Assembly: GCA_944359015.1 (NCBI GenBank)
Contig: CALVSK010000002.1
Location: 1-56,831 of the forward strand
Direction of reading: 5' to 3'
Source: an uncultured Bacilli bacterium
GTDB lineage: Bacteria; Bacillota_I; Bacilli_A; RF39; UBA660
Length of the DNA stretch: 56,831 nt
Under the pieces are notes generated by a model. It was not told where the DNA came from. It searched no databases and saw only the letters and a program-made list of their open reading frames with translations. Shown here one piece after another: positions 5,419-41,222 of this stretch. Each line of letters starts with the position of its first letter. Position 1 is the stretch's first letter. The translations under genes were made by a program, and so were the position numbers.

Positions 5419-5419
5419 T

Positions 5420-6010: not shown

Positions 6011-6021
6011 AATTTATCACC

Positions 6022-7993: not shown

Positions 7994-8049
7994 ATATTCA
8001 CCTTCTTTACTTCAAAATAATTCTAACAAAAATATTGCTTTTAAGCAAG

Positions 8050-8259
8050 TTAATTCAAGTTCATTTCTATATCACTTGCATATTCAATATTAAAATAATT
8101 ATTTAATGTAAATTTAACCTCTAAACCACTTTTTAAATAATCTGGTTCAAATAGTAAATTATCAAATAAAAAATAGTACATTTTATCATCATAACCAATT
8201 ATATAACCACAATTTTCAGAATAATCAAACCATTTTACCAAACCATAGATTTTTTGCAT
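8050..8259 (-). CDS. Small cold-shock-domain-like (OB-fold) protein, divergent
   Basis: The 69-aa sequence GLVKWFDYSENCGYIIGYDDKMYYFLFDNLL....LKSGLEVKFTL follows the GxVKWF..KGYGFI...D.F.H......L..G..V.F layout of CspA-type proteins. Its start ATG overlaps the upstream stop (TAATG), with a GGAGG ribosome-binding site inside the upstream ORF. Confidence 0.55.
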   Translation of the reverse strand: MQKIYGLVKWFDYSENCGYIIGYDDKMYYFLFDNLLFEPDYLKSGLEVKFTLNNYFNIEYASDIEMNLN

Positions 8260-10382
8260 TATCTACCTCCACTATCCATATTTAATTTTTTCTTTTGTTC
8301 ATCTAGTACACTAAGATATTCTTCATCCAATTCATCTTTGGCTTCAGTTATTAATTCATTTTCTTGAGTTATTATTATAAACCAATCCTCTGTATAATAT
8401 ATTGTCTTAATATTATAAAAATCAATTTGAATATTTAACCCTTTTTCTTGCAAAATATCCTTAATTATTTCCACTAAGTCTTTAAAATCACTATATAAAT
8501 CTCTTTTTTTATCCTTCATTATTCTAAATAATTCTTGATATTTTTGGTAAAATTGTTCATCTATTTTTTTAATTTCTCTTAGTAATTCCATTGCTGCAAC
8601 TTCTTGATGTATTTTTAACATTTGATATCGGTAATTTGTATTATTAATTTTACTTTCTTCAAGTTCATATAATTTTCTAATTATCTGTATTTCTTCAAAA
8701 GAAAAATTAACTTGACTGTATGATGTTGGCTTTAACTCTTTATAATCATAATCATATTCTACCGGTTCATCATATGATATATCATTTAGTGTTTTTGCTT
8801 CTTTTAATGAAACTAAAAAATGAGCGTATTCTAAATTACTATAAACTTCTTTCATTTCACTTTGTGGGTCATAAAAATGAAATTTGTATTTTGAAGATAT
8901 TTCTCCATATGTTTGACATTTATCTAAATTAGGGTTGTTTGTAGTTAGTACTGCTACTATACCGTACTCTCCTTCACTTTTTGCACTTTCTAATATTATT
9001 TTATCTGCCCACTCTCTTAGCATTGATGTAACTAACCTTTTTTCATTTTTATTTAATTTTATTCCTTCAATAGAATGTATTAACATTACATTTCCATTTC
9101 TTAATATTGGACAAAATGCTAAAGTATTACCACTTTGATTTTTTATTTCTACGCCTCCACCATAAGGCGTAGTTGCACAATAATGAAGTAAACTTGGATT
9201 ATAGCCAACTGAATCACCTGCTCCAACAGGTAAAAAACAATTATCGGTCCTAAAACCAGCACTTAATATATCTCTATCTTGAGGATGAAAAGTATATAAA
9301 GTATAATCACTAAAATTTATTGTAATATTTGGAAACTTTTTACTGTAATTGCCTTCCATCATTCGAGAAAGTTCTATTGTCCTATCAATTAATTTATGTA
9401 GTAATAAAACATATTTACTATTTGTCCCTATATAATCTAATATATCAGATTCTAATAACGGCTCATCTCTTTCTTCATATTGAGACAACTTGCTAATTCG
9501 AGTCTTTTTCTTACCTTTATAATATTCTTTTTGTTTTATTCTTCTTTTTGTATTTGCTAGTTCATTTAAAATATCTCTAATTTGTGCAATATTAAAACGC
9601 AAATTTAATGGTACTAAATTTTTTCGTTTAGTATATTCTATTAGTATTTTATACCATTCTTTTGCAATTAAATTTATATTTTCTACAAAAAATATTACAT
9701 CTTGACTTGCAAGTTTTGCTAAGTATTGTTTTATTGGTGTATCTTTCGCATTATAGTTTTCACCTAGTAACATTTTAATTAATTTTTCATTCAAATTAGG
9801 TTCTTTTTTATTAATATCATAAGTTACGTTACTTAAATCTATGTCAGAAAAAATATTTTCAATTTCTGTTTTACTTATAACCCCATATCTTTGATTTAAT
9901 AAATCTCTGCCTTTAAAATAACCCATAAAGTTATATATTTTTACACTATATTCTACTGCTTCATGATATAAAAAACCTAACCCCATTAATAAGTCTACAA
10001 ATTCGTTAAAGTGATTGACATTCATGTTTTTTAATATATCGATAGATAAACGAGATACAAAATTTTCAAGTTCTTTTGGTAAATTTCCATAATATTTAAC
10101 ATATAAATATTGTTTATAATTTTTTATATTAATTATACTTTCTATACTTCTTTTGTCACTAAATGCTAAAGTCAATAAACTATATTTTTCTGCATCATCT
10201 ATTTCTTTTATTTTTATTTTTGCTAGTAAACTACCTAAATATTCATAATATGTACTATTTTGAGGGATATCTAATTTAAATTCGTATACTTTCTTTGCCA
10301 TTTGCCACTTTTCGGGATTATTATTATTTAATGAATCAAATGTCTCCCAAAATGTTTTTATATTAAATTCTTCATTTTCCAT
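8259..10382 (-). CDS. Large hypothetical protein with no recognisable domain
   Basis: The ORF track gives 8259-10391. The first GTG overlaps the AGGTG ribosome-binding site, so ATG at 10382 (MENEEF...) is the likely start, giving 707 aa. The middle carries a Cys/His-containing block, FRTDNCFLPVGAGDSVGYNPSLLHYCATTPYGGG...LIHSIEG. The C-terminus looks coiled-coil. Confidence 0.8.
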   Translation of the reverse strand: MENEEFNIKTFWETFDSLNNNNPEKWQMAKKVYEFKLDIPQNSTYYEYLGSLLAKIKIKEIDDAEKYSLLTLAFSDKRSIESIINIKNYKQYLYVKYYGNLPKELENFVSRLSIDILKNMNVNHFNEFVDLLMGLGFLYHEAVEYSVKIYNFMGYFKGRDLLNQRYGVISKTEIENIFSDIDLSNVTYDINKKEPNLNEKLIKMLLGENYNAKDTPIKQYLAKLASQDVIFFVENINLIAKEWYKILIEYTKRKNLVPLNLRFNIAQIRDILNELANTKRRIKQKEYYKGKKKTRISKLSQYEERDEPLLESDILDYIGTNSKYVLLLHKLIDRTIELSRMMEGNYSKKFPNITINFSDYTLYTFHPQDRDILSAGFRTDNCFLPVGAGDSVGYNPSLLHYCATTPYGGGVEIKNQSGNTLAFCPILRNGNVMLIHSIEGIKLNKNEKRLVTSMLREWADKIILESAKSEGEYGIVAVLTTNNPNLDKCQTYGEISSKYKFHFYDPQSEMKEVYSNLEYAHFLVSLKEAKTLNDISYDEPVEYDYDYKELKPTSYSQVNFSFEEIQIIRKLYELEESKINNTNYRYQMLKIHQEVAAMELLREIKKIDEQFYQKYQELFRIMKDKKRDLYSDFKDLVEIIKDILQEKGLNIQIDFYNIKTIYYTEDWFIIITQENELITEAKDELDEEYLSVLDEQKKKLNMDSGGR

Positions 10383-10410
10383 TTTATACACCTATTATTA
10401 TTATAACATA

Positions 10411-10440
10411 TAAAAAAAGATGAGCAAAATTACTTCATCT
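10411..10440 (-). terminator. Terminator/attenuator-like hairpin upstream of the 707-aa gene
   Basis: On the minus strand the sequence is AGATGAAG-N8-CTCATCT followed by T7. The hairpin lies about 20 nt upstream of the ribosome-binding site of the gene starting at 10382. Confidence 0.45.
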
Positions 10441-10446
10441 ATTTTT

Positions 10447-10594
10447 AGAGGATAAGGCAGATATTTATTTGCTTATGTTTAAAAAGAAAACTTTAATTTA
10501 TATTGTAGGAACTATAAAACTATAATTTATATTATAGAAAGGTTTGTAAAAGAGTTAATGATTTATAAACAAATATCTTTGCCTTCCTCGCTCT
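10447..10594. other. Long imperfect inverted repeat (structured leader RNA, or a MITE- or inverton-like element)
   Basis: The arms AGAGGATAAGGCAGATATTTATTT (10447-10470) and AAACAAATATCTTTGCCTTCCTCGCTCT (10568-10594) are largely complementary. The interior holds the direct repeat TAATTTATATTGTAG (10494-10508) / TAATTTATATTATAG (10523-10537). Confidence 0.5.
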
Positions 10595-10692
10595 TAATAT
10601 TAATAAATAGATTTGATAAAAGTATGTTTTTAATGTGAAAAAAAAGTGAAATTAGGTTTTAAATTAATAATAAAAATTTAATAAAAAAAAAC

Positions 10693-10721
10693 TTGAAACA
10701 AACAATTAAATGTGATATTAT
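10693..10721 (+). promoter_or_regulatory. Sigma-A-type promoter for the tRNA pair
   Basis: TTGAAA (10693-10698), a 17-nt spacer, then TATTAT (10716-10721), ending about 10 nt before the tRNA 5' end. Confidence 0.5.
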
Positions 10722-10731
10722 TATTTTGCAT

Positions 10732-10808
10732 GGACCTCTAGCTCAGTTGGTTAGAGCATCCGGCTCATAACCGGGCGGTCGTAGGTTCGAGTCCTACGAG
10801 GTCCACCA
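10732..10808 (+). tRNA. tRNA with anticodon CAT, most like lysidine-dependent tRNA-Ile2 rather than elongator or initiator Met
   Basis: It folds as a cloverleaf: acceptor GGACCTC/GAGGTCC, D-arm TAGCTCAGTTGGTTAGAGCA, anticodon loop CTCATAA, T-arm GTAGGTTCGAGTCCTAC and an encoded CCA. G1-C72 excludes an initiator. From memory the sequence is close to B. subtilis tRNA-Ile(CAU). Confidence 0.9.
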
Positions 10809-10819
10809 TTTTTTTATTT

Positions 10820-10904
10820 GCAGGTATGGCGGAATTGGTAGACGCGATAGACTTAGGATCTATTGGATTATTCTGTGGGGGTTCAAGTCCCTCTACCTGC
10901 ACCA
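10820..10904 (+). tRNA. tRNA-Leu (anticodon TAG)
   Basis: Acceptor GCAGGTA/TACCTGC, D-arm GCGGAATTGGTAGACGC, anticodon loop CTTAGGA, a long variable arm, a TTCAAGT T-loop and an encoded CCA. Confidence 0.9.
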
Positions 10905-11041
10905 TTATTTATGTATTTTATATGATAATAAATAATATTTAAATTTTGAGTCAAAGGAATGATTTAACATTCTTTTTTTATTGGTTAATTATCAAATAAC
11001 TTGTTTGGCACAATATAATTTAAAAAAGCATTAACAAATCG

Positions 11042-12082
11042 TTAATCCTTTTTATTTTCTAAAATCCTTTTTTGAACATCGGATGGAAAAAATGAGTTAT
11101 TGATTCCTATTTCAAAATATGCATCTTTTAATGACATTCCTCCATTTTGGTATTTAATTGGTAATAAATCTATTCCTAATAAACTTTTTACCTCATCGGC
11201 ACTAAATCTATCAAAACATACTCCTACTAAATTATCAAATAAGGGGATTCCAAGTTGAAGAAAAAACTTTCTTATTTCTTCTATCTTTTGTACCATAGTG
11301 TAATCCAGATTTTGAAATAATGCCCCTATTTGTTTTATAACTTCACTATATGTTCCGCTAGAAACTTTAGGCAAAACCTTATTTTTTGTTTCTATTTCTT
11401 CTCCGAACTTTTCTTCTGTTAGATAAACATGTAAGTCATCTTTATTTGTTTCTCCACAACTGAAAACACCCGCATATTTTTTGTATGGATAGTTTCCTTT
11501 TTCAAAATCATAATTCCCCTTTGCTATACTATGTAATATATATCCATTTAAATTATCAAATGGCATTACATAAATCTTTTCTTGATATCCATCAGTAAAC
11601 TCTTCATAAGAAAACATTCTACTGTTTTTAAAAAAATTAATTATTGTTTTTTTGCCTTCTTTATTTTCATAATGTAGGCTCGGATGACATAAACAACTTA
11701 TTCCATACTCATTATCAGTAGTACAACTAAGTAAAAATTCCCCTTTAATTTTGGCTTCTTTACTCTCTAAATCAAAAATTATTTTATTTGTCCAACTTCC
11801 AAATACTCCTTTTTTCTCTTTATTGTTTGCTCTTTCTACAATACCAAATACATTGGGTATTGTATGTTTAGCATTTAATATATAATTATCTGTTTTAACT
11901 TCTATTTGAAAATAATCGTCATAAATTATAACTTTACCTACAATATTATTATTAGAGTCTATTATATTAATTGTTTTAAGATTTTCTGAAAGTTCACGAG
12001 CATCTAATATTAATTCAAAAGTATTTAAAAACACTTTTATTGCATTTATTGCTTGTTTCTTAGTTAATTTTAATTTGCTCAT
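11042..12082 (-). CDS. Hypothetical protein (orphan)
   Basis: The ORF track gives 11042-12091. AGGTGG followed 5 nt later by ATG at 12082 (MSKLKL...) is the likely start, giving 346 aa. No motif was recognised. Confidence 0.7.
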   Translation of the reverse strand: MSKLKLTKKQAINAIKVFLNTFELILDARELSENLKTINIIDSNNNIVGKVIIYDDYFQIEVKTDNYILNAKHTIPNVFGIVERANNKEKKGVFGSWTNKIIFDLESKEAKIKGEFLLSCTTDNEYGISCLCHPSLHYENKEGKKTIINFFKNSRMFSYEEFTDGYQEKIYVMPFDNLNGYILHSIAKGNYDFEKGNYPYKKYAGVFSCGETNKDDLHVYLTEEKFGEEIETKNKVLPKVSSGTYSEVIKQIGALFQNLDYTMVQKIEEIRKFFLQLGIPLFDNLVGVCFDRFSADEVKSLLGIDLLPIKYQNGGMSLKDAYFEIGINNSFFPSDVQKRILENKKD

Positions 12083-12096
12083 TATTACCACCTATA

Positions 12097-13910: not shown

Positions 13911-14066
13911 TTTATGTTGATAACTCGCGGACCCTCGCCGTTTTAGATGCGGCGAGGGCTTTTGTTTCTCCTTCTAACTTATTTTATACGGATTACTCTC
14001 TGTTCCATCTCCACTAACATATGTGACATTAGAGTTTAGATAAAAGACTGGTCTGGCCGAATAGCC
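13911..14066 (-). repeat. Near-identical 3' module shared by P2 and P3 (gene tail, stop codon, GC hairpin and about 20 nt beyond)
   Basis: 13911-14066 aligns with 36498-36652 with only a handful of substitutions and one 1-nt indel, by eye. It includes TTTATGTTGATAACTCGCG, the hairpin, and codons for GYSARPVFYLNSNVTYVSGDGTE.NPY.IS. Confidence 0.85.
13932..13958. other. GC-rich 9-bp-stem hairpin downstream of P2
   Basis: CCCTCGCCG-N9-CGGCGAGGG. The T-run lies on the plus-strand side only, which is the wrong side for terminating the minus-strand gene. The same stem with a different loop occurs at 36518-36544. Confidence 0.8.
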
Positions 14067-15404
14067 ATTGTTCGCGCTGAAGTCGTACAAGCTGCCGTTG
14101 ATGTACAGACAGAAAACAATACTACTATCCGACGAATGCGGAGTAATTGTCCATTCATAATCGCCTAAATATAGCCAATTATTACCACTATATAAATCTG
14201 AATAAAAATAATCATATAACGGGATTGTCCAATCTGAAATTTCGGATGAAAATCCATAATCACTTACATACATTAATCCTATTTTCATACTGTCTGTTGT
14301 ACTACTTGAACTACTTCCTACTTCTGTATCATAATATTGTTTTGCTGTATTTGTGTCACTCCAAGCCATTCCTCCGACTTTCCAAGTATGTGTTGCTATT
14401 TTGTTTTGCCATGTTTCACTTAATGTATTGTAATATGTGGTATTTAATGTCGTTCTTATATCTGACGTACTCCATGTATTGCTTCCGCTACTTGCCCATG
14501 CATAATCTCCATAACTTGTTGACTTTATTAGTTTTACTTCACTCCCAAAAACTCCAATTATTCGGTATAAGTTATCACTTGGACAAGTTTCTGCATCACT
14601 GCCAAAGCATACATAATTATTTGGATTTGCTCCAGCATACCTATAACTATTATCTCCTGCACTGTTTGATAAATTTGCATCATGATAATATAAACCATTT
14701 GAACCATCTGTATATGTACTTATTATATAATCTGCAAAAGTTTCTTTATGTTCTTCTTTTTGAATTTGAATTTCTGTAATCAATCTTTTACCAAAATTTA
14801 AAGATTGGTCAAAACTAAGATTTAAGTATGTCAATTTAAAATTCCAAGTTTGAGTTGTTGCGGTTTTGCTAGAATTTGAAGTTATTGTATAGGAATTTGC
14901 AACAGTAAATAAACCTGTTTTAGTTGTAATGTCAAATCCTGATACACCATTAAATGTTCCATAAGTTAAACCATCAATATTTGTAACTTCGCTACCATTA
15001 GGGTCTGTTATTGTAAGAATAATTTCAGGTGTTGAACCATCTGAATAAACAAATGTGTTTGTTGGAATATTAAAATATACAAAATATGTATGTTCCGCTG
15101 TATTATTTGTTGTATTCGCTAAAAGTGAGGCACTTGCTGTTGTAGTAGATACTAAATTTGCACCATTTTCTGGCAATGTTGTTGGTGTTGCATCTATTTT
15201 TAACGGGTCCCCTACTGCAAATTCTAATTTATCAACATCATCACTATTTAATGTAACGTTTTCTCTCGCTTCATTAATGTTAGCTGCTAAAAATGCATAT
15301 GTAATTCGAACTACTAATACTAAAAATACACCTATAATTAATACACCTAAAAAATATAATATATCTTTTTTCTTTATTTTGTTTAGCAATTTCACTTGAC
15401 TCAC
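13974..15404 (-). CDS. Membrane-anchored surface protein, paralog P2, with a C-terminal hypervariable (DGR-VR-like) patch
   Basis: 476-aa ORF with a basic N-terminus and a TM segment (ILYFLGVLIIGVFLVLVV). The N-terminal half is unique. The C-terminal ~250 aa is homologous to P1 and P3. The start may be a GTG or TTG a few codons in. Confidence 0.85.
   Translation of the reverse strand: MSQVKLLNKIKKKDILYFLGVLIIGVFLVLVVRITYAFLAANINEARENVTLNSDDVDKLEFAVGDPLKIDATPTTLPENGANLVSTTTASASLLANTTNNTAEHTYFVYFNIPTNTFVYSDGSTPEIILTITDPNGSEVTNIDGLTYGTFNGVSGFDITTKTGLFTVANSYTITSNSSKTATTQTWNFKLTYLNLSFDQSLNFGKRLITEIQIQKEEHKETFADYIISTYTDGSNGLYYHDANLSNSAGDNSYRYAGANPNNYVCFGSDAETCPSDNLYRIIGVFGSEVKLIKSTSYGDYAWASSGSNTWSTSDIRTTLNTTYYNTLSETWQNKIATHTWKVGGMAWSDTNTAKQYYDTEVGSSSSSTTDSMKIGLMYVSDYGFSSEISDWTIPLYDYFYSDLYSGNNWLYLGDYEWTITPHSSDSSIVFCLYINGSLYDFSANNGYSARPVFYLNSNVTYVSGDGTESNPYKIS
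14067..14147 (-). other. Candidate variable region (VR) of P2
   Basis: The coding strand reads att act ccg cat tcg tcg gat agt agt att gtt ttc tgt ctg tac atc aac ggc agc ttg tac gac ttc agc gcg aac aat. The run of C/G-ending codons is atypical for this genome, and differences from P3 concentrate here. Confidence 0.6.
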
Positions 15405-21435: not shown

Positions 21436-21833
21436 GTGATTGATTACTTTTTAAGTTTTCCATATTATGTTCAAGCTCTTATTGCCACTTTATTTACTTG
21501 GGCTATTACTGCACTAGGTGCTTCTGTCGTTTTTTTATTCAAAAAAGTAAATAAAAGTATTTTAGATGCTATGCTAGGATTTTCAGCTGGAGTTATGATT
21601 GCTGCAACATTTTGGTCTTTATTATCTCCTGCTATAGAAATGGCTGAGGGTTTAAAAATGAATGCTTGGGTAACTGTTAGTATTGGTTTTTTACTAGGAG
21701 GTCTATTACTTTTTATTGGAGATAAAATTTTTGATAAAATTATGAATAAAAAAGAAAAGGATTTAAAAAAAAGTAGTAGTTTTAAAAGATGTTTGATGCT
21801 GATTTCATCCGTTACCCTTCATAACATACCAGA
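21436..21833 (+). pseudogene. 5' fragment of a ZIP-family metal transporter gene (zupT/gufA-like) interrupted by an integrative element
   Basis: GTG start with an AAGGAGG ribosome-binding site. The TM-rich sequence ends ...SSVTLHNIP, after which the frame runs into element DNA (DGIFY stop). The conserved HNIPEG motif is cut after IP. Confidence 0.85.
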
Positions 21834-21839
21834 TGGTAT
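21826..21839 (+). repeat. attL core
   Basis: ATACCAGATGGTAT is an imperfect palindrome (ATACC / GGTAT arms) with central GA at 21832-21833. Confidence 0.75.
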
Positions 21840-21854
21840 ATTTTATTAGAAATG

Positions 21855-21883
21855 TAGACATGCAAAAGACATTATGGTATAAT
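21855..21883 (+). promoter_or_regulatory. Promoter of the element cargo operon
   Basis: TAGACA (21855-21860), a 17-nt spacer, then TATAAT (21878-21883) with an extended -10 element (TGgTATAAT). Confidence 0.55.
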
Positions 21884-21911
21884 TTTAGTAATTATGAAAG
21901 GAATTTGATGT

Positions 21912-23822
21912 ATGACAGAAGAAAATTTAGAAAAATTTGAAAAAAATGGTTTTAAAATCATAGATGCTAAAAAACTAGCCAAAGAATTGTATGGAAAAGA
22001 TTTAGATGAATTTATGGACAGATTACATGCTTTAAAAGAAAGTACGCGAGAAACTAAAATGTTGGATTTTTTTGCTGAATTTCAAAAAAAGATGGGAAAA
22101 ATTGAAGAAATAGTAAATGCTGATGAAATGGTTAGAGCTGGGAATCCAGAAAAACAGGAAACATTTAAGACTAATTTTAAAAAAGTTCAAAATCTTTTTT
22201 TGACTTTACAAAGATACATATCTGCTGAAGCAAATCTTGAAACACAGCACAAAAATATTATTGATGTATCTAAAAGAATACACGAAATAAATAAAGAAAC
22301 TAACTTAACAGAAAGAGAAAAAAACAAGGCAATTTTTGAACTTGTTGCTGGTCAAAAACCTTGTAGAGATGCTTATAATGATGCTTTAACAGTTTTAAAT
22401 GAGCAAAAAAGAGAACTTAAGGGTTTTAGCATTCTAGATATTAGAAATGATTTATTGAAAGAAATTAATAATCTTGATATATCAAGTAAAGAATTGGCAT
22501 TAAATGAAACTAGTAAAAAATCACTCGAAAGTATTATTGGCGAACTTAGAAATGATGCTGCTCTTTATGATTTAGAAACAGTTAAAGCAAGAGATGATTT
22601 TAATATTTTGTGTGAACAATGTGGTTTAGAGTATGATGCTTCTAAGGATTTAAGTCATGAATTGGAAGAACCTGATTTAGATGAACCTGCTAAAGAAAAA
22701 ACTGATTCTGAAGAAAAACAACCACAAGAACTCTTCACTGATGGGCCTGCAAACGATGGACCTTCTAATGATGGGCCTTCAAACGATGTCCCTTCAAATG
22801 ATGTCCCTTCAAATGATGGGCCTGCAAACGATGGACCTTCAAATGACAGACCTTCAAACGATGGACCTTCAAATGATGGACCTTCAAATGATGGACCTTC
22901 TAATGATGGGCCTTCAAACGATGGACCTACTTATGAAAATACTGAACCTGTAGGTAACAAAATAAAAGTAGTTGCAAAAAAATCTTGGGAATGGATAAAA
23001 ACACATAAAAAACAAATATTAATCGCTGCTGGTATTACAGCCTTAGTTGTTGCTTCTATAATTGCGTTTCAAGCTTTGATTCCTGCAATAACTTCTATGA
23101 TGGAATCTTCTTATATTTCAACTTTGAGTACAAGTATGGTTAATAATGGAATATTATGGCATAGTTCCGTGGCGGCTGAGCAAGCTGCTTTACATGCTGC
23201 CAATCAAGCTGGGGCTTCAATTATTAATGCTATAACTGGTGCTTCTACATCTTTTGATGCTGTTACTGGTGTTTGGACCATTGGAGGTCAATCTTTAGCT
23301 TCTTTTGCAAGTGCTGCTGCTGAGACTGCCGCTGTTGCTAGTGCGAAAGTTGCTTCCTTAACCGCTCTTACCCAAGGTACAGTTATTGGTGGCCTTGGAT
23401 TAACTGGTTTAGGTTTAATACTACCGAATGAAAAGAAATCAGCAGAATATAAAGAAATTGATAAAGTAATTAAAAATATTTCAAGAAATATCGATAATTT
23501 TCAAGAAGAAGATGTGATAAATCAATGTAATATGATAATTAATTACATACATACTTCTGTCCATTTAAGTGATAAAGAAAAGCAAGTTTTATTGAAAAAA
23601 GTTGAAAGAATTCTAAAAAAATTACAAAAGAAAGCCAAAAAAGGTAAAACTTTAAATAATCCTGTAGATTCTGAAGAAAATACTTTAGATGTACCAAATG
23701 ATGAAGAAAATATTGAAGAAGAAATTTTGGAAGAACCTGTTATTGATAATGATTTAGGAAATAATAATGATTTAGATGATCCTTTTGCTGATGAAGAAAT
23801 AACAGAAAGTTTTGGGAGGTAA
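21912..23822 (+). CDS. Element cargo: repeat-containing membrane protein of unknown function
   Basis: 636 aa. In order it has an N-terminal coiled-coil-like region, 13 NDGPS-type pentapeptide repeats, a TM helix (ILIAAGITALVVASIIAFQALIPAI), an Ala/Ser/Gly-rich segment, a second hydrophobic stretch and an acidic C-terminus. Confidence 0.8.
   Translation: MTEENLEKFEKNGFKIIDAKKLAKELYGKDLDEFMDRLHALKESTRETKMLDFFAEFQKKMGKIEEIVNADEMVRAGNPEKQETFKTNFKKVQNLFLTLQRYISAEANLETQHKNIIDVSKRIHEINKETNLTEREKNKAIFELVAGQKPCRDAYNDALTVLNEQKRELKGFSILDIRNDLLKEINNLDISSKELALNETSKKSLESIIGELRNDAALYDLETVKARDDFNILCEQCGLEYDASKDLSHELEEPDLDEPAKEKTDSEEKQPQELFTDGPANDGPSNDGPSNDVPSNDVPSNDGPANDGPSNDRPSNDGPSNDGPSNDGPSNDGPSNDGPTYENTEPVGNKIKVVAKKSWEWIKTHKKQILIAAGITALVVASIIAFQALIPAITSMMESSYISTLSTSMVNNGILWHSSVAAEQAALHAANQAGASIINAITGASTSFDAVTGVWTIGGQSLASFASAAAETAAVASAKVASLTALTQGTVIGGLGLTGLGLILPNEKKSAEYKEIDKVIKNISRNIDNFQEEDVINQCNMIINYIHTSVHLSDKEKQVLLKKVERILKKLQKKAKKGKTLNNPVDSEENTLDVPNDEENIEEEILEEPVIDNDLGNNNDLDDPFADEEITESFGR
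22740..22934 (+). repeat. 13 tandem in-frame 15-bp repeats (GATGGNCCTTCAAAY consensus)
   Basis: Read directly: gatgggcctgcaaac gatggaccttctaat gatgggccttcaaac gatgtcccttcaaat ... gatggacctacttat. Confidence 0.9.
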
Positions 23823-23830
23823 TATAAAAT

Positions 23831-24085
23831 ATGAACGTTGATGAAGTGATACAATTAGAAGATAATAATAACTATGGCTTATTATTAAAAGCTGATATAG
23901 ATGACTGCAACTATTTTTTAGCAGTTAAGCTTAATGAAAAAGAAGAGCCAACTAATGAATATAAAGTTTTAAAAGAAATTAATGAAAATACTGATACTTA
24001 TGTTCAAGAAATAAATGACCCATTAATTTTATCACAACTTTTAGAAGAATATTCTATGCAATATGATGAAACTTATAATGATTAA
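23831..24085 (+). CDS. Element cargo: small acidic protein, DUF1292-like
   Basis: The 84-aa pattern L.DNNNYGLLLK....DCNYFLAV...E.E...EYKVL resembles the chromosomal DUF1292 protein at 7061-7333. It starts 9 nt after the upstream stop. Confidence 0.6.
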   Translation: MNVDEVIQLEDNNNYGLLLKADIDDCNYFLAVKLNEKEEPTNEYKVLKEINENTDTYVQEINDPLILSQLLEEYSMQYDETYND

Positions 24086-24089
24086 CTAG

Positions 24090-24111
24090 AGATGCTTATG
24101 CATCTTTTTTT
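24090..24111 (+). terminator. Rho-independent terminator after the cargo operon
   Basis: AGATGC-TTAT-GCATCT followed by T7. Confidence 0.7.
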
Positions 24112-24195
24112 ATATTTTATAAAATATTTTCATATAATTTAATATGAAAAAATTTAAGTTTATATATATTTATTTGCAAAAAAAGGATAATTCTT

Positions 24196-25335
24196 ATGAA
24201 AATCTGGAATAAAACAGTTGCACTCTATTTAAGACTATCTAAAGAAGACAAAAATGAAAGTATTGATAAACAATTAAAATTATTATTGGATTATTTAAAC
24301 AACAATGGTATAAGAAATTATAAAACTTATATTGATGATGGATATACTGGTACTAATTTTAATAGACCTTCTTTTAAAAAAATGATTTTGGATATAGAAG
24401 CAAAATTAATTGATACTATTATTGTTAAAGATTTATCGAGACTTGGTAGAGATTACATAAAACTTGGTGAATTTGTAGAACATTATTTCCCTACTCACAA
24501 TATAAGATTTATTTCAATTAATGATAATATAGATACTCAAAATGATAGTGCTTATAATGATATTCTACCTTTTAAATCTATTTTAAATGATTTATATGCC
24601 AAAGATTTATCTAAAAAAATTAGAAGTTCAATTAAAATTATGCAAAATAACGGCTTATGGACAGGTGGATGTATACCTCTTGGATATAAACAAAGTAAGA
24701 AAAAGAAAAATAAATTAATAGTTAATCCTAAAGAAAAAGAAATCGTAGAAGCTATTTTTTCTTTAGCCTTAAAATTAAATACAATTAATGATATAAAAAA
24801 TGAGTTAAATAAAAATAATCAACCAACACTATCAAAGATAAGAAAAAATAAAAATACTTTATGGAGTACCACTACTATAAAAAACATTCTTAATAATGAA
24901 GTTTATATAGGAAATTTAGTTCAAAATAAACATCAACGATTAAGTTATAAATATAGAGTTACTATTAATAATCCTAAGGCTCAATGGATAAAATGTAACA
25001 ATACCCATGATGCTATAATTGATAAAGATACTTTTTTCAAAGTACAAAAAAAATTTAATAATAAAAAAATAAATAAAACTTTTTTAAATAATATTTATTG
25101 CTTTGAGTGTAAACATAAATTAAGTATTAGAAAAGGCAGAAATAATAAAAAATATTTTTGTTGTAATTTTTACAAAAACAATTTAAAAAATAAATGTTGC
25201 ACCGCTCATGCATTTAGTTATTCAATTTTTATAAAAGAATTTTTTGAATCTATAAAAGAAAATAATATTAAATTAGATAAAATTTGTAAAATTGAGATTT
25301 CCAAAGATAAAAATGTTTATATTTTTTTATCTTGA
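24196..25335 (+). CDS. Large serine recombinase (resolvase catalytic domain, recombinase domain and zinc ribbon)
   Basis: 379 aa. VALYLRLSKED contains the catalytic Ser. Also present are YIDDGYTGTNFNRP, VKDLSRLGRD, the WTGGCIPLGYK recombinase-domain motif and the Cys cluster CFECKHKL...YFCCNFY. Confidence 0.88.
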   Translation: MKIWNKTVALYLRLSKEDKNESIDKQLKLLLDYLNNNGIRNYKTYIDDGYTGTNFNRPSFKKMILDIEAKLIDTIIVKDLSRLGRDYIKLGEFVEHYFPTHNIRFISINDNIDTQNDSAYNDILPFKSILNDLYAKDLSKKIRSSIKIMQNNGLWTGGCIPLGYKQSKKKKNKLIVNPKEKEIVEAIFSLALKLNTINDIKNELNKNNQPTLSKIRKNKNTLWSTTTIKNILNNEVYIGNLVQNKHQRLSYKYRVTINNPKAQWIKCNNTHDAIIDKDTFFKVQKKFNNKKINKTFLNNIYCFECKHKLSIRKGRNNKKYFCCNFYKNNLKNKCCTAHAFSYSIFIKEFFESIKENNIKLDKICKIEISKDKNVYIFLS

Positions 25336-25353
25336 TTTACATTACTTTTAAAT

Positions 25354-25367
25354 ATACCAGAAGGTAT
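25354..25367 (+). repeat. attR core
   Basis: ATACCAGAAGGTAT with central GA at 25360-25361, in the same orientation as attL. Confidence 0.75.
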
Positions 25368-25770
25368 GGCAATTGGAGTTGCATTTGGTTCTGTTGCATA
25401 TGGAATTGAAGGAGCGACTGTTATGGCAGCAGTAATGTTAGCAATTGGAATTGGTATTCAAAATTTTCCAGAAGGCTCAGCTGTTTCTTTGCCTTTAAGA
25501 CGTGAAGGACTGAGTCGTAAAAAAGCTTTTATGTTTGGAAATTTAAGTGGAATAGTAGAACCTATATCTGCAGTAATTGGTGCTATTCTAGTTTTAAAAA
25601 TTCAGATATTATTGCCTATTTTGCTAGCATTTGCTGGTGGGGCTATGATATATGTTGTTGTACAAGAATTAATACCAGAAAGTCAAACTAACGAAAAAAA
25701 AGACCTAATGGCCTTATTTACAATATTTGGATTTATAATTATGATGGTTTTTGATGTAGCACTAGGCTAA
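25362..25770 (+). pseudogene. 3' fragment of the interrupted ZIP-family transporter gene
   Basis: It continues (E)GMAIGVAFG...GIQNFPEGSAVSLPL...GGAMIYVVVQELIPE, typical ZupT/GufA C-terminal TM motifs. The ATG at 25366 has no properly spaced ribosome-binding site. Confidence 0.85.
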
Positions 25771-25781
25771 ACACATTGTGT

Positions 25782-27521
25782 TTAGTTTTTATTTTCATTT
25801 TTATACAAATTTTTATATACTTCACAGTTTTTTAATAAATATTTGTGTTTACCATGAGCAACTACTTTACCATTATCAATAACATATATTATGTCGGAAT
25901 CTATTATTGTTGATAATCGATGGGCAACAATTATTACTGTATGATTTTTAATTAAATTATCAATGGCATTTTTTATTTTTTCTTGGTTTTCATTATCTAA
26001 GGCACTTGTTGCTTCATCAAATAAGATAATCTTTGTGTTTTTTAAAAGAGCTCTTGCTATTGCCAATCTTTGTTTTTGGCCACCACTTAAATTAACTCCC
26101 CCTTCTCCTATTAATGTGTTATATTTGTTGGGAAGACTCATTATATAATCATCGATTTCTGCTGTTTTACAGGCTTCTCTTATTGTTTTTAATGAGACAT
26201 ATTTATCGATTATTTTAAAATTATCTATTATACTTTTATTAAAAATAAATGGTTCTTGACGAATTATAGCTATATTTTGATTAAAAGATTCTTCATCAAA
26301 TTCATTAATTGGTATATCATCTATTAATATTTTCCCTTCATTTGGTTCAAAATATCTTAATAATAAATTAAATATCGAAGTTTTTCCCTGTCCACTTTTT
26401 CCTACTAATGCAATTTTTTTGTTTTTTTCTAATTTTAAATTAAAATTTTTGAAAATATATGCTTCCTTTTCACTATATTTAAAAGTTACATCTCTAAACT
26501 CAATATTACCTTCAATGTCTGTTTTATGCACGTTTCCAAAATAAATGTCATCATATATTTTATTATCCACTATTTCTGCTATTCTTTCTAGTGATACTTT
26601 GGCTCTTTGATAAGAACCAGAAAAATTCATGCCCCACTCGATTAATCCCATAAATCTATATATGTAGTAAGTTATTGAAATAAAAAAGCCAATTGTTGTT
26701 TTTTCTAATGCTATTAAGATAATACATGTAATAAAAGCTGTTACTTCTAACATAGCACTTAATATGTATGATGTTGCATAATAATTTTCTTCATCTTTTA
26801 CTTGCTTTTTACTTTTATTAAATATATTATTTATAATTTCTTTCATCTTTATATTAATAGTCTTTCTTATTCCTAAAGCTCTTATTTCTCTAATTCCTCT
26901 AATGGATTCATTAGCTTCGGCAACTGCTTTATCTTTTTCGGCGGTTATTTCTTTTTGAACTTCTTTTAATATAGGTAAATATTTTTTAGAATATAAATAA
27001 AATATTATAAAATATAGGATTATTTCTAAAGCAATTAGCCAAGAATTAAACAAAATATAAATAAAAATAACAAATGCAGAAAAAAACGTTGTTCCGATAT
27101 TTATAAATTGTCTAAATGTTTCTGTTACATTACTTGAGTCACTAGTCATTCTATTTAATAACTCTCCACTACTTTTTTCTTCAAAGGCTCTTGCAGGTAA
27201 TAATCCAACCTTATAAAATACTTGATAATTTATCTTTTCCATTATATTTATACAGACATTTTTCATTGAAATTTTACCAGTTTTATTTAAATACATATTA
27301 TCTATTATTATAAATATAAAATATAGTATTAATGTTAATACGGCTAGTATATATTTTTCATTTGTTGTATAATCTACTGCTAAGCCAATTAAATATCCAA
27401 AACTAACTCCTATCATAGAGCTAAGTAATATGCATATCATTGCTTTAAATAATAATCTTTTTTCTCCAATAATATATCTTTTAAAAAATTTTATAGTTTC
27501 TTTAAATCCCATATCAATCAC
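25782..27521 (-). CDS. ABC exporter, fused permease/ATPase (MsbA/MdlB-like)
   Basis: 579 aa with an N-terminal 6-TM domain, Walker A GKSGQGKTS, the signature LSGGQKQRLAIARA and Walker B ILFDEATSALD. Confidence 0.9.
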   Translation of the reverse strand: MIDMGFKETIKFFKRYIIGEKRLLFKAMICILLSSMIGVSFGYLIGLAVDYTTNEKYILAVLTLILYFIFIIIDNMYLNKTGKISMKNVCINIMEKINYQVFYKVGLLPARAFEEKSSGELLNRMTSDSSNVTETFRQFINIGTTFFSAFVIFIYILFNSWLIALEIILYFIIFYLYSKKYLPILKEVQKEITAEKDKAVAEANESIRGIREIRALGIRKTINIKMKEIINNIFNKSKKQVKDEENYYATSYILSAMLEVTAFITCIILIALEKTTIGFFISITYYIYRFMGLIEWGMNFSGSYQRAKVSLERIAEIVDNKIYDDIYFGNVHKTDIEGNIEFRDVTFKYSEKEAYIFKNFNLKLEKNKKIALVGKSGQGKTSIFNLLLRYFEPNEGKILIDDIPINEFDEESFNQNIAIIRQEPFIFNKSIIDNFKIIDKYVSLKTIREACKTAEIDDYIMSLPNKYNTLIGEGGVNLSGGQKQRLAIARALLKNTKIILFDEATSALDNENQEKIKNAIDNLIKNHTVIIVAHRLSTIIDSDIIYVIDNGKVVAHGKHKYLLKNCEVYKNLYKNENKN

Positions 27522-30103: not shown

Positions 30104-31807
30104 TTATTTATAGCCAAATAAAAATTTCTTATTGGGTATTATAAATTCATATTTTTTTATTGCTAATCCTGTATTAGGAACCCTAATGCTAATCTTATAA
30201 TTAGTAACATTTATCGTTACAATTTCATTATTTTCTTTTATTTCAAATTCAATATAATCTTTTAGGCATTGGTAACCTATTGGTGCTTCTACTTCTTTAA
30301 GATAATACTTACCTATTTTTAAGTTTTCTATTTTTATTTCTCCGTTTTGAGCAGTTGTTCCACTTGCTACTTCTTCATAGTTAGTATTATATAAAACAAA
30401 CTTTGCTTTTTCTAATGGCTCATTGTTTATATCTACTTTTTTAATAATTATGGTTCCTTTTTTATAATTATTTATTATTTCCAGTTCTTTATTTATAATT
30501 TTATTGTTTTTATTATCAATTTCTAAATAAATTTCATACTCTTTTATATTTTTTACGTATTCATTTTTTGTTTCTAGTTCTCTTATTACATATTTTCCAA
30601 CTTTTAAATTTTCAAATATTAAATATCCTGAAATATTGGTATATTTTTCATCTATTAAATTATTATGTTTATCATATAAGCCAAATTTAACATTTTCTAC
30701 AAAATTGCCTTCTTCATCTTTTTTTATTATTTCAATATTTCCTTTTAAAGGTTCGTTTTCAAAATATATTATAACTGGTTCTTCACTTTCTAAATCAAAG
30801 TATTTTTTTATTTCATTTATTGTGTAACCATCAATTATTTGATTTGTTTTTTCCTTAATATAATATTTACCTATTTTTAAATTATTTAATATAATTTCGC
30901 CATTTTTATCTGTTTTTTCTACGGTAATTAATTCATTGTCCAAATTATATATCTCAAAAATAATTCCTTCTTGTTTAATTGGATTATTTGTCTCACTATC
31001 TATTTTTATTATTTTTAAACAAGTTTCTTTAACTTCGTATTCTAAATTATAAATTATAGTTTCAAAATTCCCAACAGCCATAATATTTTGACTTGTTGGA
31101 TTAATATATACTATTGTTTTACTGCTATATTTATTGCTTGCTTTTTCTAAAGAAATATTATATTTTCCAAGTTTATCACCATTTATGTTTAATGCATTAT
31201 TTTCAATTTTTACATTATTATTTTCAATTTTAAAATTTTCTAATACATTATTATAATCTTTAAAAGTTTTTTGTTCTCCATACATTAATTCTATTTTATC
31301 AAAGACCGGATTTTTAAAATGATTATCTACTAGATTATATATTTCTTCTATTTCTTTTTCATATTTTTGATAATCTATTTCCCCACCAAGTTCATTTATA
31401 AAATAAAATTTTGAATCTTTATCAGCTTCTCTCCATATTAAAATTTGAGTTATATAGTACCAATAATCTTCTACATGATGCTTGTACATATACCCATAAT
31501 AAGAAATTAATTCTATTTTTTGCCACTCTTCCTCTGTAATTTTTAATATTTTTTCATATTCACCCATATATTCTTCATAGTCCATATTTGTATTTAATTT
31601 TACAAATGGTTCTAAACAATATACAAAAAAATTATCACTTGTTCTTCTTATAAAGTTTCCTTGTTTTTCTTTTCTTTCTCCTTTATCATTTATTTTTACT
31701 ACATACATACCTTCAATTTTACTTCCTTCATAAAAACTTTCTGCTTTTGCTTTATTTACAAAACAAATCATTAATAAAAATATAATAATAAATTTTTTTA
31801 TGTTCAT
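30104..31807 (-). CDS. Secreted thioester-domain adhesin with three Cna-B/SpaA-like repeats
   Basis: 567 aa with signal peptide ...VNKAKA/ES. The thioester pair consists of a Cys in VYCLEP and a Gln in ITQILIW (a TQxxIW motif). Three ...KID/KKD..G.P....F.LY......T...G...ENLK.GKY..KE... repeats follow. The C-terminal VPNTG lacks a following hydrophobic anchor. Confidence 0.7.
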   Translation of the reverse strand: MNIKKFIIIFLLMICFVNKAKAESFYEGSKIEGMYVVKINDKGERKEKQGNFIRRTSDNFFVYCLEPFVKLNTNMDYEEYMGEYEKILKITEEEWQKIELISYYGYMYKHHVEDYWYYITQILIWREADKDSKFYFINELGGEIDYQKYEKEIEEIYNLVDNHFKNPVFDKIELMYGEQKTFKDYNNVLENFKIENNNVKIENNALNINGDKLGKYNISLEKASNKYSSKTIVYINPTSQNIMAVGNFETIIYNLEYEVKETCLKIIKIDSETNNPIKQEGIIFEIYNLDNELITVEKTDKNGEIILNNLKIGKYYIKEKTNQIIDGYTINEIKKYFDLESEEPVIIYFENEPLKGNIEIIKKDEEGNFVENVKFGLYDKHNNLIDEKYTNISGYLIFENLKVGKYVIRELETKNEYVKNIKEYEIYLEIDNKNNKIINKELEIINNYKKGTIIIKKVDINNEPLEKAKFVLYNTNYEEVASGTTAQNGEIKIENLKIGKYYLKEVEAPIGYQCLKDYIEFEIKENNEIVTINVTNYKISIRVPNTGLAIKKYEFIIPNKKFLFGYK

Positions 31808-36497: not shown

Positions 36498-36652
36498 TTT
36501 ATGTTGATAACTCGCGACCCTCGCCGTTTTATAGGCGGCGAGGGCTTTGGTTTTTCCCTTTAACTTATTCTATACGGATTATTCTCAGTTCCATCTCCGC
36601 TAACATATGTGACATTAGAGTTTAGATAAAAGACTGGTCTGGCCGAATAGCC
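36498..36652 (-). repeat. P3 copy of the shared 3' module
   Basis: See 13911-14066. Confidence 0.85.
36518..36544. other. GC-rich 9-bp-stem hairpin downstream of P3
   Basis: CCCTCGCCG-TTTTATAGG-CGGCGAGGG. The stems are identical to the P2 copy and the loop differs. Confidence 0.8.
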
Positions 36653-38020
36653 GTTGCTCGCGTTGCTGATGTTCAAGTTGCCGTCGTGGTACAGAAGAAA
36701 CGCGCTATAACTGTTCGACGAATACGAAGTAACTGTCCATTCAAGATTACCTAAATATAGCCAATTTGTACTTCTAACTGAATAATAATTCGATAGTGCT
36801 GTTGTCCAATTACTATTACTTGCTGCAAAGCCAAAGTCGCTTACGTACATTAATCCTATTTTCATACTATCTGTTGTACTACTTGAACTACTTCCTACTT
36901 CTATATCATAATATTGTTTTGCTGTATTTGTGTCACTCCAAGCCATTTCTCCGACTTTCCAGGTATGTGTTGCTATTTTGTTTTGCCATGTTGCACTTAA
37001 TGTACTGTAATATGTTGTATTTAATGTACTTCTTATTGTTGAACTACTCCATGTATTACTACTTCCACTATCCCACGCATAACCCCCAATATCCGACAAG
37101 TTCATATTACCGCTGTATGTCCCAGTATCACCAATAAAATTTTCATAATTATCTATAGCTCCATATTCTGTGGACAAATAATCTGCTTTTATTAATTTTA
37201 CTTCATCATCAAATACTCCAATTATGCGATATAAATTATCATTTGGACAAGTTTCTTCATCTGAACCAAAACATACATAATTATTTGGGTCTGCTCCTGC
37301 ATATCTGTAACTATTATCTTCTGCACTATTTGCTAAACTTGAGTCGTGATAATAAAGTCCATTTTCTCCACCACCATATGTGCTTATTATATATTCTGAA
37401 AATGTACCTTCTCTATCATATGATTTAACAGCGACACCGGCATTAAATGTTTTATTCATAGTGGATGCATCAGTTACAGATTCATCTACATATAAATATA
37501 AATCATAAGTTGATTCACCTTTTAAGGGTATGGAATCATTGTATAATTTATAAATAGTTGAAAAAGTTCCATTTATTCCATTGTTATATTGTGTTTGTTC
37601 TTCAGCTGTAAATTCACTTATAGCATTTGTGGCATTAGATAAAATTCCTTCTGTTAAAATATCTTTAGAGTTATTTTTAGTTATTATATAATGAATATTT
37701 GATGCATCTAAAGTATTTGTATTTAAAGTAGCTAAATAAAGATTAAATCCTACATAATTTTCACATGAACTTGTTACAGTGAATGTATATGGTGTAGTTT
37801 GTAATGCTTTATTCTTGCTCATAGGATATGTATTATTTAAATCTATTGATACATCTGTATCTTCTAATGTTATTTTGGCACAACTTTGTAGTGTTACTTC
37901 TGTTACTGATTCTGTATCTATACCTGGCCTCATAAAAGAGTAAGTAACTCCTAAAACTATTGTTATAATTATTAATACTGAAATGATACTTAATAGTATA
38001 ATTCTTGTTCTTGGTTTCAT
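36560..38020 (-). CDS. Membrane-anchored surface protein, paralog P3, with a C-terminal hypervariable (DGR-VR-like) patch
   Basis: 486 aa with TM segment IILLSIISVLIIITIVLGV and a unique beta-rich N-terminal half. The C-terminal half is homologous to P1 and P2, with stretches of near-identical DNA to P2. Confidence 0.85.
   Translation of the reverse strand: MKPRTRIILLSIISVLIIITIVLGVTYSFMRPGIDTESVTEVTLQSCAKITLEDTDVSIDLNNTYPMSKNKALQTTPYTFTVTSSCENYVGFNLYLATLNTNTLDASNIHYIITKNNSKDILTEGILSNATNAISEFTAEEQTQYNNGINGTFSTIYKLYNDSIPLKGESTYDLYLYVDESVTDASTMNKTFNAGVAVKSYDREGTFSEYIISTYGGGENGLYYHDSSLANSAEDNSYRYAGADPNNYVCFGSDEETCPNDNLYRIIGVFDDEVKLIKADYLSTEYGAIDNYENFIGDTGTYSGNMNLSDIGGYAWDSGSSNTWSSSTIRSTLNTTYYSTLSATWQNKIATHTWKVGEMAWSDTNTAKQYYDIEVGSSSSSTTDSMKIGLMYVSDFGFAASNSNWTTALSNYYSVRSTNWLYLGNLEWTVTSYSSNSYSAFLLYHDGNLNISNASNGYSARPVFYLNSNVTYVSGDGTENNPYRIS
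36653..36733 (-). other. Candidate variable region (VR) of P3
   Basis: The coding strand reads gtt act tcg tat tcg tcg aac agt tat agc gcg ttt ctt ctg tac cac gac ggc aac ttg aac atc agc aac gcg agc aac. Confidence 0.6.
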
Positions 38021-41102: not shown

Positions 41103-41222
41103 TTCATACCTCCTTATTTTTGAAGTCGCGCCTTTAAGGTACTTATTTAATAAGTTTATTAACCTTTTTAGTGCGGTTTTTTAAGAAATTACTTAAAGAA
41201 CATTTCAATTTTACCAAATAAA

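Follow-up and report, generated by a model that had tools for sequence, protein, structure and literature searches.

A ZIP metal transporter gene of an uncultured Bacilli bacterium is interrupted by a 3.5-kb element that encodes a large serine recombinase (LSR). The window analyzed here comprises 56,831 nucleotides (positions 1 to 56,831 of contig CALVSK010000002.1, assembly GCA_944359015.1, forward strand), and the element sits in the codons for the metal-binding motif HNIPEG of the transporter (Table 1). We conclude that it is probably a reduced, mainly vertically inherited descendant of a family of mobile LSR elements that target this motif, and that it acts as an excisable gene interruption.

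The junctions of the element define it precisely. The left junction, attL, reads CATAACATACCAGATGGTATATTTTATTAG, and the right junction, attR, reads TTTTAAATATACCAGAAGGTATGGCAATTGGA. In the window, the junction core ATACCAGANGGTAT is matched perfectly at these two places and nowhere else; if up to one mismatch is tolerated, chance would give 0.07 matches, and none of 100 shuffles reached the observed count. Joining the right end of the element to its left end gives the reconstructed attP, TTTTAAATATACCA-GA-TGGTATATTTTATT, whose inverted arms (AAATATACCA and TGGTATATTT) are perfect over 10 bp. For the excised forms, the predicted attB junction string contains CATAACATACCAGAAGGTATGGCAATT, and the predicted attP junction string of the circle contains TTAAATATACCAGATGGTATATTTTATT. 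The recombinase gene abuts attR, its stop codon being 25 bp short of the crossover. All of this is in line with the initial annotation of the stretch, which was made from the letters alone and described a minimal LSR element with a GA crossover in the HNIPEG codons, whose precise excision would restore the gene. Its junction sequences, their coordinates and the direct orientation of the GA dinucleotides hold base for base, and the attP arms and the position of the recombinase gene were confirmed.

Joining position 21833 to 25362 is in frame, restores HNIPEG (...TLHNIPEGMAIGVAFG...) and yields a protein of 268 amino acids (aa). As the initial annotation had claimed, this is a ZIP protein: over 120 intact proteins of 264 to 268 aa match it along its full length (71 to 82% identity, with 79 to 82% at the upper end, and 99 to 100% coverage), it spans the whole Pfam Zip profile, on which the two halves occupy complementary regions, and it has the metal-site motif HNxPEG. 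The 5' part aligns with the N-terminal half of the intact 268-aa homologs. In the interrupted state, its open reading frame (ORF), which begins with GTG, reads on to a stop codon at 21849 and gains the junk residues DGIFY, and the 3' part is readable as an ORF from an ATG at 25366. Furthermore, a syntenic relative (L011) carries an uninterrupted 268-aa ZIP gene, i.e., an empty site. In silico, the element thus interrupts a coding sequence that excision restores.

The split gene is conserved. Its 3' half is 84 to 95% identical among the element-bearing lineages, and there were zero stop codons or frameshifts in every split ZIP gene compared. Pairwise dN/dS was 0.03 to 0.11 for the 3' half and 0.07 to 0.43 for the 5' half, the same range as for the host genes Lon (0.09 to 0.35) and MutS (0.05 to 0.24); dS is near saturation, and these ratios are rough. 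Within one host clade, dN was 0.083 for the split-split comparison (L097-L100) versus 0.121 for the intact-intact comparison (L011-L014). Judged by these substitutions, the split ZIP gene is under purifying selection, constrained like its intact orthologs, and not a pseudogene. A ZIP protein cut in the middle of a transmembrane helix at a metal ligand can hardly work as two pieces, and the 3' part of related elements lacks so much as an initial start codon. Since the halves are conserved and a function in two pieces is hardly possible, the simplest reading is that the ZIP gene is regularly rebuilt.

From the sequences, the crossover point can be assigned to the GA dinucleotide, which is central in all lineages, as expected for exchange of the TnpX/TndX type. 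In two lineages, L009 and L185, GA is the sole stretch identical between attL and attR (in L185, CCT-GA-T versus CCA-GA-A). Since attL and attR disagree on either side of it, GA is left as the sole candidate for a 2-bp overlap in these two lineages. Most lineages have GAT (Asp, followed by junk) in attL and GAA in attR, so that an exchange at GA always regenerates Pro-Glu-Gly.

The attP junction was also found in nature. In L008 (positions 5074 to 11790), the element is present twice in tandem between the ZIP halves, with a period of 3,352 bp and 100% identity of the copies over 3,366 bp. The joint between the copies (approximately 8409 to 8501) consists of the right end, ACATACCAGAAGGT and the left end, and is exactly the predicted attP. 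It represents either a true tandem insertion or a circle walked by the assembler. Since this holds under both readings alike, reads with the attP junction must exist in the L008 sample.

Homologs with 51 to 63% identity to the recombinase have 379 to 418 aa throughout, and metagenome assemblies and metagenome-assembled genomes were their only sources. For every such short recombinase whose contig was read, from at least eight diverged lineages, the gene order was the same: Lon, the ZIP 5' part, a big ORF, a small ORF, the recombinase gene, the ZIP 3' part, and then MutS and a SpaA-domain protein, with an ABC transporter gene between the ZIP 3' part and MutS in most lineages. Elements were found at this site in L001-L010, L041, L097-L101, and L185, and the same junctions recur in independent assemblies from many samples (ENA, NCBI, Logan). 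Insertion at multiple sites, as in elements of the TnpX/TndX type, was not observed: all copies found with a short recombinase are at one site.

Between lineages, identity is 54 to 87% for the recombinase, 65 to 88% for Lon, and 75 to 96% for MutS. In two shallow pairs, L002/L041 (recombinase, 87%; Lon, 88%; MutS, 96%) and L004/L009 (75%, 82%, and 82%, respectively), synonymous distances are similar for the recombinase and the host genes. A Mantel test of recombinase against Lon distances gave an r of 0.57 (p of approximately 0.01). The window lineage looks mainly vertically inherited rather than mobile, and on these distances vertical inheritance may be firmly claimed only since the two shallow splits.

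The recombinase was assigned to the LSRs by several lines of evidence. Its catalytic domain (PF00239, E = 1e-23) has TnpX as its best match (E = 3e-29) and showed 47% identity to the solved TnpX domain in a fold search; the Y-x-R-x-S motif with the nucleophilic Ser (Y11, R13, and S15) is kept without exception in an alignment of 55 sequences. The DNA-binding Recombinase domain of LSRs, which comes after the long helix E, is present (PF07508, E = 2e-21). An AlphaFold2 (AF2) model (pLDDT 81.5) aligns with the SPbeta, Bxb1, and phiC31 integrases with E values down to 2e-19, the best structural matches being SPbeta integrase complexes with approximately 390 of 535 columns aligned. The zinc ribbon is marked by C302, C305, C323, and C335, which are invariant across 55 homologs, and by strands modeled there; its PF13408 score is 22.0 bits, under the Pfam cutoff of 25.3.

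The coiled-coil segment of LSRs is absent from the window recombinase. Alignments with two relatives of 518 to 524 aa (P0040 and P0070; 47 to 49% identity) revealed that the 379- to 395-aa proteins lack approximately 95 to 110 residues between the four-Cys zinc ribbon and the C-terminal strands. In the relatives, this extra stretch is a long heptad-rich helical segment, and we take its position to be that of the LSR coiled-coil motif. The AF2 model has just a 14-residue helix there (residues 342 to 355). The 407- to 418-aa recombinases (L097-L100) lack most of the same segment, with approximately 25 to 30 residues more retained. Pairwise dN/dS values of 0.10 to 0.38 indicate that the recombinase gene is under purifying selection. 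When the coiled-coil is deleted from the LI integrase, the block on attL × attR recombination is lifted and intramolecular deletion proceeds without a recombination directionality factor (RDF), while intermolecular integration is poor (PMC5499577). Based on this phenotype and on the natural loss of the segment, kept under selection, we predict that the window enzyme excises unaided and reintegrates poorly.

A conserved micro-ORF of 30 to 43 aa (consensus FKFNVYF..GEELE.II..L..IL) lies just 5' of, or overlaps, the recombinase gene at approximately 36 loci (e.g., L100, 6913-7011; L033, 9853-9975; L034, 9809-9940; L027, 9780-9896). It occurs with long recombinases and in the 407- to 418-aa lineages. 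A hidden Markov model of the micro-ORF had no match at any locus with a 379- to 386-aa recombinase; in these lineages, just its first six codons (MKKFKF) are recognizable. By its co-occurrence with recombinase genes, the product is a candidate accessory or directionality factor, one that would have become dispensable. Besides the degenerate remnant of this micro-ORF (Table 1), no RDF candidate was found in the element.

The probable origin of the element emerges from its more distant relatives, which were surveyed at 80 loci from species-representative genomes. Approximately 21 of the closest ones (46 to 50% identity, approximately 520 aa) have a ZIP 3' fragment at CCAGA(A/G)GG just past the recombinase stop codon and, where the contig reaches far enough, a 5' ZIP fragment ending in H(N/D)IPEG 2.8 to 10.4 kb upstream. 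Some elements of this type interrupt GufA/ZupT-like ZIP genes at the first motif (HNIPEG/MAVG), and others interrupt a second ZIP type at the second motif (LHDIPEG/ISMAVP). A third set, with near-identical ends, cuts an ABC transporter ATPase gene at ...VTHDISE/AISMSDR, where the DNA string is nearly the same (L020, approximately 7059 to 11600; L029, approximately 4993 to 11600; L031, L045, L026, L023, and L024). The recombinase genes and right ends of L022 (6147-11592) and L025 (2225-3893) are 94% identical and lie in different ZIP genes, in the second motif of a type B ZIP and in the first motif of a GufA-like ZIP, respectively, which points to recent movement. The cargo of the wider family is diverse (GNAT, ASCH, RhuM-like, radical-SAM-like, and many unknowns), with phage and transfer genes lacking, and IMG/VR contained no close relative (best identity, at most 42%). 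An in-frame fusion of recombinase and ZIP at some of the long-recombinase loci was considered and rejected, the stop codon being 1 to 4 codons before the PEG codons.

We conclude that the family consists of small non-phage integrative elements of the TnpX/TndX branch which are more site selective than Tn4451. We propose that its recombinases recognize CAT-RAY-ATW-(C/T)CA-GA-AG, a sequence that coincidentally codes for the ZIP metal-binding motif H(N/D)IPEG. The initial annotation had also considered a mobile element that targets a coding motif. This applies to the ~520-aa relatives, which use one DNA motif in three gene families; the window lineage looks mainly vertical. At the empty target, the codons are CCC GAA GGT in L011 (8385-8415) and CCT GAG GGA in L014 (8385-8415), versus CCA GAA GGT; these other codons might lower recognition by the recombinase.

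Apart from the recombinase gene, the element contains a promoter, two cargo ORFs, and a terminator, and our promoter, ORF, and hairpin scans matched this list of the initial annotation. No known transfer or replication domains were detected in the element ORFs besides the recombinase (Pfam, PHROGs, profile libraries), no relaxase (Mob) match was obtained for the cargo in Pfam, PHROGs, and other profile scans, and the only significant PHROG match was the integrase. Phage, conjugation, and replication genes are thus lacking, as had been stated at the outset. A phage or plasmid origin was rejected: there was no DNA match in 50,697 GenBank phage records, and the closest plasmid-borne relatives of the recombinase are genes annotated TndX, with 39% identity. 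With 26.6%, the GC content of the element is close to the 25.6% of the window.

The product of the first cargo gene, the big protein, has a predicted helical N-terminal domain, (GPSND)n repeats, and a conserved hydrophobic, putative membrane-spanning segment; the core after it is rich in Ala and Gly, and the acidic tail has GR as its last residues. The number of repeat copies varies among its close relatives (610, 636, and 661 aa). Only 29 homologs, all unnamed, were found among 5.8 billion proteins; the AF2 model was poor (pLDDT 53), and Foldseek returned generic helical bundles only. The small protein is 43 to 58% identical across lineages, and for neither cargo protein did Pfam, PHROGs, NCBIfam, and PADLOC yield a match that was significant and interpretable. 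In L014 (8001-11260) and L015, an intact 268-aa ZIP gene is directly followed by both cargo homologs with the same promoter and terminator but no recombinase gene; in L014, a sequence homologous to the cargo promoter of the window was recognized 5' of the cargo genes. The host of L014 groups with the element-bearing L097-L100. A clean secondary-site insertion was rejected for L014, where the left-arm att sequence of the element is absent. The pair also occurs alone at unrelated chromosomal sites, with neither a recombinase gene nor a ZIP gene nearby: flanked by genes for Amidase_3 and a pseudouridine synthase in L182 (6001-8283) and L183 (3495-5777), and near Coat_F, Fic, and a weak DUF1292 match in L184 (117-2527). 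Since the pair is found without the recombinase, we conclude that the cargo is a clade-specific, host-type module and is not element specific. The small protein as an RDF was rejected as a main idea, as it accompanies the big protein where no recombinase exists.

According to the mechanism that we propose, the recombinase would bind attL and attR and would introduce, at the shared GA, the 2-bp staggered cut typical of serine recombinases. The 3.5-kb element would then be deleted as a circle carrying attP, leaving CCA-GAA-GGT (P-E-G) behind, and the 268-aa ZIP gene would be functional again. Loss of the coiled-coil would lead to cofactor-free excision and poor reintegration, and the element would consequently stay at one site and be inherited with the chromosome. 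Poor reintegration by an enzyme without coiled-coil fits the observed pattern of one site, one cargo, and linkage to the chromosome. We infer that excision occurs in this organism, that it is cofactor free, and that the host uses it for conditional ZIP expression. The initial annotation had suggested a reversible gene switch. The switch is indirectly supported by the split ZIP gene, which is conserved like the intact one, and by the attP in L008. Its reversibility is doubtful, because the recombinase lacks the coiled-coil that the LI integrase requires for efficient intermolecular integration. Going further, we tentatively consider it possible that the element is a domesticated, heritable, excision-only DNA switch on a metal-uptake gene of a gut Firmicutes clade, in which a bidirectional integrase would have become a self-sufficient 379-aa excisionase by losing, step by step, the coiled-coil, another C-terminal piece, and the micro-protein.

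Several observations speak against an excisable, mainly vertically inherited interruption. No excised junction was found for the window's own species, on which few searchable data exist. A collection of 15 billion proteins contained none of the exact joined proteins of four lineages, and the attB and attP strings were absent from the JGI metagenome contigs, a collection that probably does not contain this species (which was seen only in ENA and Logan). Instead of a circle, a true tandem duplication could underlie the L008 junction. Since deletion of the coiled-coil abolishes the activity of the phiC31 integrase (PMC10754689), the activity of a natural enzyme without coiled-coil is not guaranteed. 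The deep branches of recombinase and host are not clearly congruent, leaving room for some horizontal movement. Moreover, the layout of L014, with intact ZIP gene and cargo but without recombinase gene, is not explained by simple excision. Finally, control of the ZIP gene need not be the "purpose" of the element, because the target is picked by its DNA sequence and three unrelated gene contexts share the string.

The main rival explanation is that of a selfish element which is still mobile within the species: ZIP would be selected in element-free cells, and the element would re-invade them without having a host function. The ~520-aa relatives clearly move, as seen from the right ends of L022 and L025 in different ZIP genes and from the near-identical ends in ABC-ATPase genes, and they carry diverse cargo. 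In addition, the empty-site species L011 belongs to the host clade, and the tandem copies in L008 would suit reintegration. We nevertheless hold this explanation to be unlikely. All short-recombinase elements found have one site and one fixed cargo, no intact allele of any element-bearing species was found in the searchable data, and the recombinase is without the segment that the LI integrase needs for efficient intermolecular integration; a selfish element would also be one without transfer or replication genes and without phage relatives. It is even far less probable that the insertion permanently inactivated ZIP, that the element never excises, and that the halves look conserved since the insertions are recent. 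While it is true that an excision product was not seen directly for the window species, the recombinases differ by 13 to 46% between lineages, in step with the host genes for the shallow pairs, and synonymous divergence is like that of the flanking genes, so that the insertions predate the lineage splits. Despite the age of the insertions, dN/dS of ZIP stays at 0.05 to 0.2 and frameshifts are lacking, the recombinase itself is under purifying selection, and the attP junction exists in L008. An artifact, be it two naturally separate genes or a misassembly, can practically be dismissed. Nothing else than the ATG at the start of the 3' part speaks for it, and it is refuted by the recurrence of the junctions in independent assemblies, by the halves that complement each other on one Pfam profile and are split within an invariant metal-binding motif, by the full-length intact matches, and by the syntenic empty site.

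A rearrangement as in sporulation, which the initial annotation had brought up, would restrict excision to the terminal mother cell; ZIP would be made there, and the germ line would keep the element. Such germ-line protection would explain long retention alongside a conserved split gene. The window contains genes for two peptidases, M50 (247 aa) and M23 (199 aa), at 41223-42546, between MreC and the L21-leader/Prp/L27/Obg block, a location that spoIVFA and spoIVFB occupy in B. subtilis, and a Coat_F gene was found near the cargo pair in one relative (L184). Furthermore, all LSR-type intervening elements that were shown experimentally are of the sporulation kind (PMC5595907). However, ZIP transporter genes are not known to belong to sporulation, and the gene is uninterrupted in hundreds of close relatives. 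NCBIfam detected neither SpoIVFB nor any other sporulation family among 10 window proteins (M50, M23, and eight unannotated ones), which makes the suggested link to sporulation weak, and approximately 40 window ORFs that were scanned included no clear sporulation gene. The conserved CATATAAT 5' of the recombinase gene fits an ordinary sigma-A −10 box (TATAAT) as well as a CATA-type mother-cell promoter. Altogether, we regard a sporulation-type rearrangement as rather improbable. Stochastic or condition-dependent excision, which would give ZIP-positive cells under zinc limitation, is equally possible as the mother-cell model, and the empty-site species L011 may represent a fixed outcome of it.

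Wherever excision of a gene-intervening element has been demonstrated, the interrupted gene is a developmental one (sporulation, heterocyst). A conserved example in the metal transporter gene of a gut bacterium would extend the phenomenon to ordinary physiology, e.g., to zinc uptake under host-imposed metal limitation. If the tentative reading as a domesticated switch is true, the element would be the first conserved one of the gene-intervening kind to lie outside sporulation and heterocyst genes, and its enzyme would be a natural minimal LSR with directionality hard-wired by domain loss. Natural LSRs of 379 to 418 aa that lack the coiled-coil and are under purifying selection offer a ready test of the LSR directionality model, and the short LSR is a possible compact tool for cofactor-free excision. 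The wider family illustrates how a recombinase tuned to a motif-fixed DNA string (H-N/D-I-P/S-E) can hop between unrelated genes sharing this string, and a candidate for a new accessory factor is offered by the conserved micro-ORF beside the recombinase gene.

The features of the element and its surroundings are listed in Table 1. In the promoter region of the recombinase gene, TCATATAAT is kept in L002 and L041. Outside the element, five large ORFs (349 to 710 aa) on the main coding strand had no Pfam or NCBIfam match. The gene adjoining MutS (30104-31807) encodes a surface protein with a thioester (TED) domain and three SpaA/prealbumin-like domains and is kept in all related loci. The only Rfam matches in the window were two adjacent tRNA genes (10732-10901) and an L21-leader RNA element (41114-41188).

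Table 1. Features of the interrupted ZIP gene, the intervening element, and unmatched ORFs in the window
Feature	Position	Strand	Remarks
ZIP gene, 5' part	21436-21833	+	TM1 to first half of HNIPEG; Pfam Zip 5-109 of 323, E 2e-12
attL core ATACCA-GA-TGGTAT	21826-21839	+	GA at 21832-21833
Intervening element	21834-25361	+	3,528 bp, one GA copy counted; within HNIPEG codons of ZIP gene
Promoter-like site of cargo operon	21855-21883	+	TAGACA-17-TATAAT, TG extension; sigma-70-like, 11/12 positions, best score of the region
Cargo gene 1 (big)	21912-23822	+	636 aa; conserved core at residues ~346-515
15-bp tandem repeat	22739-22928	+	12.7 copies; encodes (G/V/R)PSND repeats within cargo gene 1
Cargo gene 2 (small)	23831-24085	+	84 aa, acidic; in every case accompanied by cargo gene 1
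Terminator-like hairpin and T-run, end of cargo operon	24088-24107	+	Intrinsic type
Promoter-like site 5' of recombinase gene	24109-24138	+	TTTATA-18 nt-TATAAT
Degenerate micro-ORF remnant	24144-24212	+	MKKFKFIYIYLQKKDNSYENLE
Large serine recombinase gene	24196-25335	+	379 aa; Resolvase, Recombinase, and Zn_ribbon_recom domains (Pfam); TnpX/TndX branch
attR core ATACCA-GA-AGGTAT	25354-25367	+	GA at 25360-25361
ZIP gene, 3' part	25362-25770	+	EG through TM8; Pfam Zip 192-322 of 323, E 7e-15
Terminator-like hairpin 3' of ZIP gene	25764-25788	+	
Unmatched large ORFs	8259-10391, 11042-12091, 13974-15404, 36560-38020, 49093-50316		

LSR elements that intervene in sporulation genes are skin/SpoIVCA in sigK, SPbeta/SprA in spsM, gin/GirC in gerE, and vfbin, and the example of gin (28.6 kb) demonstrates that such elements need not be prophages (PMC5595907, PMC4191935, PMC5499854). 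The window element is similar to them in that an LSR element lies within a coding sequence, has short att cores, and would rebuild the ORF by precise excision. The sporulation elements are 14 to 135 kb long, combine a full-length LSR with an RDF (SprB, GirX, the C. difficile skin RDF), and have sporulation genes as targets. In contrast, the window element has 3.5 kb, a metal transporter gene as target, a 379-aa LSR without coiled-coil, and no intact cofactor gene. Excision also restores a host gene in active lysogeny and related phage switches, such as Listeria phi10403S in comK and SpyCIM1 in mutL. These are phages or phage-like chromosomal islands, whereas no phage gene was found in the window element.

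The closest recombinase branch is that of Tn4451/Tn4453 (TnpX) and Tn5397 (TndX), small clostridial non-phage elements which are moved by a "large resolvase" and also cross over at GA and excise as a circle. TnpX has 707 aa, and the window recombinase is approximately half as long. Tn4451 carries mobilization (Mob/oriT) and resistance genes and uses many GA sites; the window element has neither gene set and one conserved site. The Tn4451 integrase exchanges strands at 2-bp identical sequences (GA), independently of an RDF (PMC5704250). In its main text, the study by Durrant et al. (2022) describes LSR clades sharing one conserved intragenic target, e.g., in comM/Mg-chelatase and prolyl isomerase genes, and does not name a ZIP target (PMC10083194). 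Like the clades described there, the elements analyzed here combine diverse LSRs with one intragenic attB, DNA specificity being held constant by a protein motif. Unlike in those clades, as far as that main text portrays them, the same recognition sequence is used in three gene families, and one sublineage is apparently fixed, and reduced. The engineered coiled-coil deletion in the A118-type LI integrase (Gupta et al. 2017, PMC5499577) has the same predicted consequences, with directionality control lost. It is a laboratory mutant of reduced efficiency, whereas the loss reported here is a natural one that a whole clade shares and that purifying selection maintains.

In the literature, we found no paper linking LSRs with ZIP genes. 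Gene-intervening LSRs (PMC5595907), GA recombination of the TnpX type (PMC5704250), shared intragenic targets (PMC10083194), and the laboratory deletion of the coiled-coil (PMC5499577) are each known separately. New is their combination: a conserved and apparently fixed 3.5-kb element in a metal transporter gene, a natural LSR without coiled-coil, and an ancestry in a mobile family whose target is the H(N/D)IPE codons.

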